DNA of 64,000 bases from Escherichia phage PA27, in sequence record KP682380.1. The stretch is one strand, 5' to 3'. Numbering within the stretch: position 1 is the stretch's first letter; each line of letters starts with the position of its first letter. Made by a program: the position numbers. Positions 30,001 to 33,000 of the stretch are shown one piece after another.

Positions 30001-33000
30001 CGTGCGTGAAGCCACCGGCACCTCCGGCGTGGATAATGCAACCGGCCCCCGACTGGCAGACACCGCTGAACGGGATTATTTCATCCTCAGAGAGAGGCTG
30101 ATCACTATGCAAAAACAACTGGAAGGAACCCAGAAGTATATTAATGAGCAGTGCAGATAGAGTTGCCCATATCGATGGGCAACTCATGCAATTATTGTGA
30201 GCAATACACCCGCGCTTCCAGCGGAGTATAAATGCCTAAAGTAATAAAACCGAGCAATCCATTTACGAATGTTTGCTGGGTTTCTGTTTTAACAACATTT
30301 TCTGTGCCGCCACAAATTTTGGCTGCATCGACAGTTTTCTTCTGCCCAATTCCAGAAACGAAGAAATGATGGGTGATGGTTTCCTTTGGTGCTACTGCTG
30401 TCTGTTTGTTTTGAACAGTAAACGTCTGTTGAGCACATCCTGTAATAAGCAGGGCCAGCGCAGTAGCGAGTAGCATTTTTTTCATGGTGTTATTCCCGAT
30501 GCTTTTTGAAGTTCGCAGAATCGTATGTGTAGAAAATTAAACAAACCCTAAACAATGAGTTGAAATTTCATATTGTTAATATTTATTAATGTATGTCAGG
30601 TGCGATGAATCGTCATTGTATTCCCGGATTAACTATGTCCACAGCCCTGACGGGGAACTTCTCTGCGGGAGTGTGCGGGGATAATCAAAAACGATGCACA
30701 CCGGGTTTTCTCATTTTTCACGAGATGGGAGCGATTTCCCGCGAAGCCGCCTGTCCGGTGCGGTGGTGGAAGAAACCGGATAAAACAACCGCATTGTGCA
30801 AATATCGATCAAATATGGTGCTGCTGTGTGAAATCTGAAAAATCACAGCGGTCATTATGCATCAGTTTTTAACACAGGACGTCAGAACGTGACATGGCAA
30901 AGCTGGACTGGAAAAAGCTGGAGCAGGCATTCCGACGCGAACATGCCGAAACGGGAATAACATTACTGGACTGGTGCCGGAAGAAAAAGATTAATTACAA
31001 CACCGCCAGAACCCGTATAAAAATGGGCAAAATCGATCATGAAATTGATCATAAAACCGATCATGAAATCGATCATGACATCTCAGATGAAGAACCCTGC
31101 AATGACGCGGGTTCCGGCGATGAAAAATGTGCAAAAAACTCTGAAAAAAACTGCGCAAATTCGGCAGAAACGAAACGGATTCGTGGTTCCCGACTTTTAC
31201 CACCTTCAAACGCTTTTTCTCAGCGAAACACCCACGCCGTAAGACACCGTGGATATGCGAAGTATCTTGAGGCAGATAACCTCATGGATGATGCGTCCGA
31301 CATGGTGCTGTTCGATGAACTGGTGTTCACCCGGGCCCGCGCACTTTCAGTAACTAAGGCACTTAAAGGGATGTTCGCCGACCTGGAAGAGGCAACTGAC
31401 GTGGAAACCCGTGTTGCTCTTTACGACAAAATACTCAAAGCTGAACAGGCCCTTGACCGGAATATTGCCCGTATCGAGTCAATTGAACGCTCATTGCTGA
31501 CGCTGGACGTCCTGGCTGAGACAGCACCAAAACTTCGTGCTGACCGGGAAAGAATCAACGCCGCCAGAGATAAACTCAGAGCTGAAACCGATATTCTGAC
31601 CAACCAGCGTCGGGGCGTTGTTACGCCTGTCAGTGACATCGTGTCATCGCTGCATGAAATGAGTAATTCGGGGAGACTGGATGACATTCCGGAAGAATGA
31701 ACCGCGATGTGATGAGCCGTCAGAAATGACCGAGGCTGAACAACGTCTGTTCATCATGACTAAACTGAGCAATCCCTGGTGGCGGCTCAATCATCTCTAC
31801 AAAATACAGAACGAAAAAGGTGAACTGGTCACCTTCAGAATGCGACCGGCGCAGCGCCAGTTGTTCCGGAGCATGCACAATAAAAATATTATCCTGAAAG
31901 CGCGCCAGCTGGGATTTTCCACAGCCATTGATATTTATCTTCTCGACCAGGCATTATTCATTCCGCATCTCAAATGCGGGATCGTCGCTCAGGATAAACA
32001 GGCTGCCAGTGAAATTTTCCGCACAAAAATTGCTGTACCGTTTGATCATCTCCCTGACTGGCTGAGAGCCTCATTCACCATCGTTGAACGTCGTAGCGGT
32101 GCCAGCGGTGGCTATATCCTGTTTGGTCACGGCTCGAGTATCCAGGTGGCAACCTCATTCCGTTCAGGTACGGTGCAGCGCCTGCATATCTCAGAGCACG
32201 GCAAAATTTGCGCGAAATATCCGGCTAAGGCGAAAGAACTGCGAACCGGTACGCTTAATGCCGTCTCTGATGAATGCATTATTTTTGATGAGTCCACTGC
32301 TGAAGGCGTGGGTGGTGATTTTTACGAGATGAGTAACCGAGCACAGGAGATCACTGCATCAGGCTTATTGCTGACGGCACAGGATTATAAATTCCATTTT
32401 TACGCCTGGTGGCAGGATCCTAAATACAGCGCCAGAGTGCCGGAAAGCGGGCTGAAGCTGTCACGGGAAAAAATGACGTATTTTTCTGCGGTTGAGAAGG
32501 CAATGAACATCACGCTTACTGATGAACAGAAGCAGTGGTACATCAATAAGGAAACTGAACAGCGTGAGGAAATGAAGCAGGAGTTTCCCTCAACGCCACA
32601 GGAGGCGTTTCTGACGTCCGGACGACGTGTGTTCAGTGCCGAAAGTACGTTGCAGGCAGAATCATTCTGTTCGCCACCGATGATTGTTTATGACATTGAA
32701 CCTGTTACAGGAGCGAAGACTAAAGCTCAGTCTCTGCGTGAAGGAAATAAAAACGAGTTGCAGCGGACGCTGATGAATTATCTGCTGGTATGGGAACTGC
32801 CGGATCCGGATGAAGAGTATGTTTGTGGGGCAGATACTGCCGAAGGGCTGGAGCACGGAGACCGCTCATCGCTGGATGTTGTCAAACGCAGTAATGGCGA
32901 GCAGGTGGCTCACTGGTTCGGGCATCTCGATGCTGAACTTTTTGCTCATCTCATTTCGCAGGTCTGTCGTATGTATAACAACGCGTTTGTGGGGCCGGAG

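Follow-up and report, generated by a model that had tools for sequence, protein, structure and literature searches.

The closest described counterpart of the element considered here is the packaging site (pac) of phage P1, a region of approximately 161 bp within pacA that carries seven TGATCA/G repeats and whose processing is regulated by Dam methylation (PMC10028697, summarising Sternberg and Coulby 1987-88). For P1, the precedent for a loss of titre or of phage DNA packaging on recoding of the site is approximately 9-fold (PMC10028697). In the P1 record AF234172, the experimentally defined site has four GATC hexamers at nt 195-229 of pacA, cuts at approximately nt 276-285, an adjoining IHF site, and three further hexamers at nt 325-348. 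Short repeated sites near or inside the small terminase gene (terS), at which the helix-turn-helix (HTH) motifs of an oligomeric small terminase start packaging, are also represented by the pacL boxes of SPP1/SF6, which are bound by a ring of G1P HTH motifs (PMC4737164), and by the R sites of lambda cosB, which are bound by gpNu1. The pac of P22 lies inside gene 3 and consists of one 22-bp element rather than an array (PMC10996546). We analyzed a stretch of 64,000 nucleotides from Escherichia phage PA27 (KP682380.1; hereafter, the window), a Shiga-toxin-converting phage of the 933W/Sp5 type. Its terS gene contains a 12-bp tandem repeat with four GATC sites, and we propose that this array (31032-31079, plus strand) is probably the TerS recognition part of pac, similar to the hexamer (HEX) array of P1. 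The SPP1/SF6, lambda, and P22 systems differ from it in their unrelated TerS folds and sequences, and GATC is not involved in their sites.

The terS gene (30894-31700, plus strand; 807 bp, 268 residues) was assigned from its open reading frame (ORF) and a match to phrog_370, "terminase small subunit" (E = 4.8e-125). The gene is 100% identical to 933W L0112 and VT2-Sakai H0127, both "small subunit terminase", and to those of Min27, phi24B, and many other phages; its coordinates are the same in phage PA52. Phage 933W performs generalized transduction; its virion ends could not be sequenced, and the authors inferred terminal redundancy and proposed the name pacase for the enzyme (PMC3752737). Because of the generalized transduction and the apparent terminal redundancy, 933W is probably a pac-type headful packager. 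Generalized transduction and, probably, headful packaging are features that P1 and the 933W type have in common. In the full-text literature searched, we found no mapping of the pac site of 933W, Sp5, or phi24B, and a preprint on the cryo-EM structure of phi24B contains no statement on packaging.

The four GATC sites start at 31035, 31047, 31059, and 31071, in exact 12-bp steps, as the initial annotation had reported. Tandem Repeats Finder delimited the repeat to 31030-31082, with a period of 12, 4.4 copies, and 82% matches. In codon register, the four units are ATCGATCATGAA, ATTGATCATAAA, ACCGATCATGAA, and ATCGATCATGAC, and they follow the pattern AnYGATCAnRAn. They encode IDHE-IDHK-TDHE-IDHD; the earlier description, (I/T)DHE four times, is therefore approximate. 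The hexamer is TGATCA in one unit and CGATCA in three. The whole terS gene has four GATCs, all of them inside this cluster, and other 40-bp stretches of the window never have more than two. The Poisson chance of four or more GATCs in 40 bp is approximately 4e-6 per stretch and 0.006 per window, but this null model is too generous, as tandem duplication of a unit with one GATC phases the GATCs automatically. The phasing itself is thus unsurprising because the units are tandem copies; it is the comparative tests described below that indicate that the GATCs are maintained. Single-stranded DNA of the array forms no hairpin and folds no more stably than shuffled sequences (z = -0.73), and a scan of 30480-31300 for promoters and terminators found none near the array. 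The absence of these signals supports the interpretation as a recognition array.

The architecture of TerS places the array directly behind its predicted DNA-binding domain. In an AlphaFold model based on an alignment with 54 homologues, codons 1-46 (30894-31031, plus strand) form a three-helix HTH domain with helices at residues 6-20, 24-31, and 35-41 and predicted local distance difference test (pLDDT) values of 73-86. The third helix (YNTARTR; 30996-31016, plus strand) is the predicted recognition helix. Residues 46-104 are disordered in the model (pLDDT 31-36), and a C-terminal helical hairpin (residues 130-238) is predicted very confidently. Codons 47-62, with which the linker begins just past helix 3, make up the array. 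A Foldseek search of the model against the PDB returned only generic coiled-coil matches (best E = 0.09), a profile search of the PDB sequences gave no match, and no Pfam family matched TerS or the large subunit, TerL.

The N-terminal approximately 45 residues of TerS show a weak but reciprocal homology with P1 PacA (BLAST E = 0.009; hhalign E = 1.2e-4, probability 55%). PacA matches phrog_370 at E = 1.9e-4, and residues 1-46 of TerS match the PacA family phrog_1711 at 2e-4. The rest of TerS (268 residues in total) is not detectably related to the rest of PacA (397 residues), nor is TerL to PacB, for which BLAST found no similarity. The P1 pac lies just past this homologous domain: its HEX4 starts at codon 65 of pacA, while the array in the window covers codons 47-62 of terS. 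In both phages, GATC-containing repeated hexamers are located within the gene of the small packaging subunit, 3' of the N-terminal HTH, and fall on Asp-His/Gln codons. They differ in arrangement: P1 has two clusters (four and three hexamers) around the cut with irregular spacings of 7, 12, and 15 bp, whereas the window has a single cluster with a strict 12-bp spacing. We regard the 933W array as the same kind of object as the P1 HEX array.

Similar arrays were found in a scan of IMG/VR for four GATCAs in 12-bp phase. PacA-like genes on contigs of approximately 92 kb have five or six TGATCA hexamers at exact 12-bp spacing behind the same HTH, and their units have diverged everywhere except at YGATCA and in the 12-bp phase. 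The PacA-like genes of L182 and L229 (both on approximately 92-kb contigs) and of L257 encode 424-437 residues, and their TGATCA arrays are more regular than that of P1; L257 and L182 have additional GATCs approximately 150 bp downstream of the array. Another gene, L171 (283 residues), has five GATCs at nt 300-349. The pattern GATCA-N7 repeated four times occurs in at least 120 IMG/VR stretches, mostly in unrelated contexts such as coding repeats of giant viruses, and just five new stretches lie behind a terS-like HTH. The phased GATCA motif alone is not diagnostic; only its context behind the HTH is.

We gathered homologues of terS from protein, genome, and viral collections, and all of them have a variable linker at the position of the array. 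More than 55 distinct homologous genes, from Aeromonas, Yersinia, Serratia, Brenneria, Xenorhabdus, Citrobacter, Salmonella, E. coli, and Klebsiella, have 3-9 copies of a hexamer at the same position. Most of them carry 3-8 copies of the palindrome TGCGCA, usually as AAAnTGCGCAAA, with spacings mostly of 9, 10, 12, and 14 bp (overall range mostly 9-14 bp). In 56 distinct genes, the density of TGCGCA is 21.7/kb at gene nt 110-330 versus 0.44/kb in flanks of approximately 6.6 kb, an enrichment of approximately 49-fold. The sister arrays with TGCGCA, TTCGCA, or TGCGAA (in PhiR12_3, Klebsiella phage 5 LV-2017, RothD, Pasteurella Pmp11, and Aeromonas phiARM81mr, for example) belong to genes with phrog_370 or the shared N-terminal module. 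They resemble the array in the window in the gene, the position after the HTH, the copy range, and the spacing of approximately one helical turn, and in the E. coli phages among them the body of TerS and TerL are nearly identical to those of the window. They differ in that the AT of the 933W type is replaced by CG (or shows a T/A change), leaving no Dam site, and in a recognition helix of ARRY or AKRY instead of ARTR. No description of the TGCGCA- and TTCGCA/TGCGAA-type terS arrays was found in the literature searched.

These relatives bear on the main alternative, in which the repeat is of low complexity and either neutral or of use only to the protein: its xDHx units would form a flexible, perhaps metal-binding, linker between the two TerS domains that is prone to slippage, with GATC as a by-product of the Asp-His codons. 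The array does encode a segment predicted to be disordered, its length is tolerated at one to seven copies, its units in the 933W type share a single frame, and 12-bp GATCA repeats are found in many unrelated viral contigs. However, the homologous TGCGCA hexamer is read in three frames, as T-GCG-CAA (Ala-Gln; 182 cases), nTG-CGC-AAA (Val/Leu/Met-Arg-Lys; 50), and TGC-GCA (Cys-Ala; 37), and synonymous sites are fixed. In A-[QH] dipeptides of the linker, Ala is encoded by GCG in 92% of cases, compared with 24% for the remaining Ala codons of these genes, and T comes before it in 93%, compared with 27% elsewhere. In 12 divergent representatives, GCG accounts for 46 of the 52 linker Ala codons and 70 of the 292 elsewhere (P = 6e-19). 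Given this use of all three frames and the fixed synonymous sites, the comparison indicates that selection on the TGCGCA arrays acts on the DNA and not on the peptide.

A similar constraint is seen in the GATC-type genes. In a Salmonella lineage whose protein is approximately 60% identical to that of the window, three or five GATCs occur in 12-bp phase and match the array in their positions within the gene (nt 142, 154, 166 and onward); its units encode SDQK, SDHK, NDHE, and NDHN, and its hexamers are TGATCA three times and CGATCA twice. When 24 distinct units were compared, drawn from E. coli, from Salmonella, and from PacA-like genes, YGATCA was the sole invariant: the base before GATC is a pyrimidine in all 24, the residue after Asp is exclusively His or Gln, and the base 3' of YGATCA is free. 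Asp in the linker D-[H/Q] dipeptides is encoded by GAT in 34 of 34 cases versus 95 of 173 (55%) elsewhere (P = 2e-8), a count in which codons were chosen by dipeptide and not by DNA and in which units within one gene are not independent. In the window terS alone, the figures are 4 of 4 and 9 of 22. The invariable GAT, the exchange of His and Gln while GATCA stays, the PacA-like units that have kept little besides YGATCA and its phase, and the covariation of the hexamer with the recognition helix all argue against a neutral linker, which we consider improbable.

This covariation involves residues 38-41 in helix 3 of TerS, which track the repeated hexamer. TGCGCA goes with a helix of ARR[YH]; this pairing spans many genera and recurs in two phages whose TerS body differs, Klebsiella phage 5 LV-2017 and E. 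coli phage 606R9. Where the helix reads AKRY, the hexamer is TTCGCA or the complementary TGCGAA; this holds for the Pectobacterium/Brenneria clade and for the phages RothD (Klebsiella) and Pmp11 (Pasteurella), the last of which has nine hexamer copies in two frames. ART[RQ] is paired with YGATCA, both in the 933W type and in the Salmonella lineage. The pattern is what is predicted for a DNA-binding helix that co-evolves with its sites. A simple residue-to-base code, in which Arg40 would read the central CG, was also considered; it is weakened by the P1/PacA-like ARRY and ARRE helices, which use TGATCA.

A second alternative is that the array is a Dam/SeqA-responsive site apart from TerS recognition, which would time late-gene expression or replication through SeqA, transcription, or repair. 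SeqA/Dam clusters are defined by at least two GATCs within approximately three helical turns, and the array has four at 12-bp spacing. The window also encodes a Dam-family DNA adenine methyltransferase (16435-16962, plus strand; PF05869, E = 6.4e-65), and it is otherwise poor in GATC, with 162 occurrences observed versus 249 expected from base composition; the tetranucleotide is thus under-represented despite the presence of this gene. However, most arrays of the family are TGCGCA or TTCGCA without GATC, so the hexamer array, and not the methylation site, is what is conserved. No promoter-like site is nearby, and a gene for an adenine methyltransferase is likewise present in PhiR12_3, a relative of the TGCGCA type. 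We therefore regard a separate Dam/SeqA site as still less probable than a neutral linker. Because of the enzyme in PhiR12_3, a phage Dam gene was rejected as a discriminator between the array types. For the recognition array itself, Dam sensitivity is plausible only by analogy with P1, for whose pac alone Dam dependence has been shown, and the phage enzyme may methylate its GATCs.

The helix and the hexamer array also move together. Sliding identity against PhiR12_3, a TGCGCA-type E. coli phage, revealed a mosaic cassette at 30952-31236 that comprises HTH helices 2-3, the array, and the linker; it is approximately 50% identical, while both flanks are 93-100% identical. The position of the sites, beside the codons of their presumed reading helix, would keep the protein and its target linked and let them move as one recombination cassette. 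It is very unlikely that the repeats are no more than a joint left by recombination, at which an exchangeable N-terminal module meets the conserved body of TerS: the collapse of identity and the many assemblies that break, or carry an IS629-like element, in or beside the array fit such a joint, but it fails to explain the hexamer, phase, and synonymous sites kept in relatives that are only 40-60% identical, and the array does not contain the boundaries of the cassette, which are located beyond it.

Downstream of the array, the linker contains two copies of the majority-family hexamer (31128-31157, plus strand), TGTGCA at 31128-31133 and TGCGCA at 31152-31157, 24 bp apart. Other alleles of the 933W type have TGCGCA at both places, and 31147-31176 is identical to PhiR12_3 at 30 of 30 positions. 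The TGCGCA copy followed by GCAGAAACGAAACG (31147-31176) is kept even in GATC-type genes, and the encoded peptide NCA..ETKR (the ENCAxxxETKR region) is conserved from Citrobacter to E. coli, perhaps through a constraint on the protein or as a second part of pac. The two hexamers lie within or beside DNA that TGCGCA-type phages share, so they are possibly a second part of the site or may simply be inherited.

The expectation that the repeat number varies was borne out by the relatives, among which alleles with 1, 2, 3, 4, 5, and 7 units occur. Four units are by far the commonest: the window has four, as do 39 of 40 IMG/VR contigs and most of the 387 E. coli genomes (among 5,426 complete ones) that bear the cassette. 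Three units are found in Stx2a phages of the LC645412 type, five in L014/L103 and P0024, and seven in P0001/L155, where a three-unit block was duplicated. The full-length alleles with 3, 4, 5, and 7 units all stay in frame and encode 264, 268, 272, and 280 residues, respectively. Alleles with one (P0020) and two (P0016) units are known solely from partial proteins on short contigs and may belong to defective prophages. A phase-variable contingency locus was rejected, as the unit is 12 bp and all copy changes are in frame. In L157 (LC727843.1, locus 1501-1690), the end of an IS629-like element (TGAACCGCCCCGGGTTTCCTGGAG...) is inserted directly after the third GATC unit; the insertion truncates TerS to 59 residues in a set of Stx2a prophages of 48-51 kb, and at least seven further LC7278xx records break at the same query position, nt 177. 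Because of this truncation, these prophages are probably packaging-defective.

The suggestion in the initial annotation that the repeat could be a pac or terminase recognition element is strongly supported by comparison, through the positional homology, the multi-frame encoding, the synonymous constraint, the covariation with the helix, and the precedent of P1. The array is most likely a DNA element that is bound by the N-terminal HTHs of an oligomer of the TerS encoded in the same gene. From these comparisons and the P1 model we infer the following course. During late growth, the hexamers in their 12-bp phase would be bound by TerS, either on phage concatemers or on phage DNA that is still integrated. 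The bound TerS would recruit TerL, which would cut nearby, and headful packaging would run on from the cut. Methylation by the host or phage Dam, and SeqA on hemimethylated DNA, could modulate binding or cutting at the GATC hexamers as in P1 pac; the array is thus possibly Dam-sensitive.

Several points weigh against the assignment of 31032-31079 to pac. PhageTerm analysis of a 933W-like phage gave "Mu-like" ends, not pac ends (PMC7946995). The window has no second GATC cluster and instead has TGTGCA/TGCGCA approximately 50-75 bp downstream, and a consensus scan of 30950-31250 did not find the IHF consensus WATCAANNNNTTR, even with one mismatch. All units of the 933W type share a frame and resemble recent duplicates, so the argument from several frames draws on relatives. 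Alleles with one to three units exist, so four copies are not strictly needed. The independent switches of helix and hexamer are few, possibly a single one to GATC and between one and three to AKRY, and PacA of P1 has the helix ARRY with a TGATCA target, which speaks against a simple or universal code. The "Mu-like" phage, Lys19259Vzw, has a terS that is 99.9% identical, and it was classed in this way because its read termini carried host DNA (PMC7946995). For the location of pac this result carries no information, although the ends might reflect packaging before excision, as in lateral transduction, and not transposition.

A broader proposal, which we put forward only tentatively and with some doubt, is that terS genes with a PacA-like HTH form a portable packaging-specificity cassette, in which a helix travels with its own target hexamers, encoded directly behind it in one reading frame, and at least three specificities (TGCGCA, TTCGCA/TGCGAA, and YGATCA) have been exchanged among phages that otherwise hardly differ. 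The switch to GATC in the 933W/Stx lineage might then subject the initiation of packaging to epigenetic control by Dam and SeqA, and with it the generalized transduction, and possibly also the lateral transduction, that starts from the prophage. Such a family-wide cassette appears to be undescribed in the literature searched. Phages of the 933W/Sp5 type are generalized transducers that disseminate the genes for Shiga toxin, and no mapping of their pac was available in the literature found; a precise candidate for pac (31032-31079) and for the recognition helix (TerS residues 35-41) can now be tested. The start and the direction of packaging determine which host genes adjacent to the prophage could be mobilised. 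Dam gating of packaging as in P1 and a swap of specificity by exchange of the approximately 280-bp cassette are likewise testable. The family pattern also provides a natural data set for the co-evolution of HTHs and their sites, and it could predict pac in uncharacterised prophages.

The starts of the GenBank records that we examined are arbitrary and carry no information on virion ends, and most of the records are in prophage order. AP004402 is a circular record that starts at an XhoI site (CTCGAG; window 32133), and AP005153 and AP005154 presumably start at the same site, judged by their equal offset of 432 bp after terS. PV189402 starts at the start codon of the large subunit gene and carries only a generic "circularly permutated" note.

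Downstream of terS, the large terminase subunit gene terL (31681-33387, plus strand; phrog_2, phrog_38407) is followed by a P22-type portal gene (33387-35531, plus strand; PF16510, E = 1.4e-128). Other repeats are present in the window. Five 11-bp repeats, TACCAGCA(A/G)AT, are located in two groups at 12891-12988 inside an O-like replication gene (12497-13396); they are probably origin iterons, again binding sites inside the gene of their own binder. An antirepressor-like ORF (17416-18150) with ORF6N and P22_AR_C domains contains approximately 2.5 copies of a 30-bp repeat (TTGCGGGT..CTTTAA...ACTCACAAAAT) at 17608-17684. A 45-bp collagen-like repeat that encodes Gly-X-Y occurs twice at 41653-41743; it is one of several short repeats within 40500-41750, in what is presumably a gene for a tail fibre.

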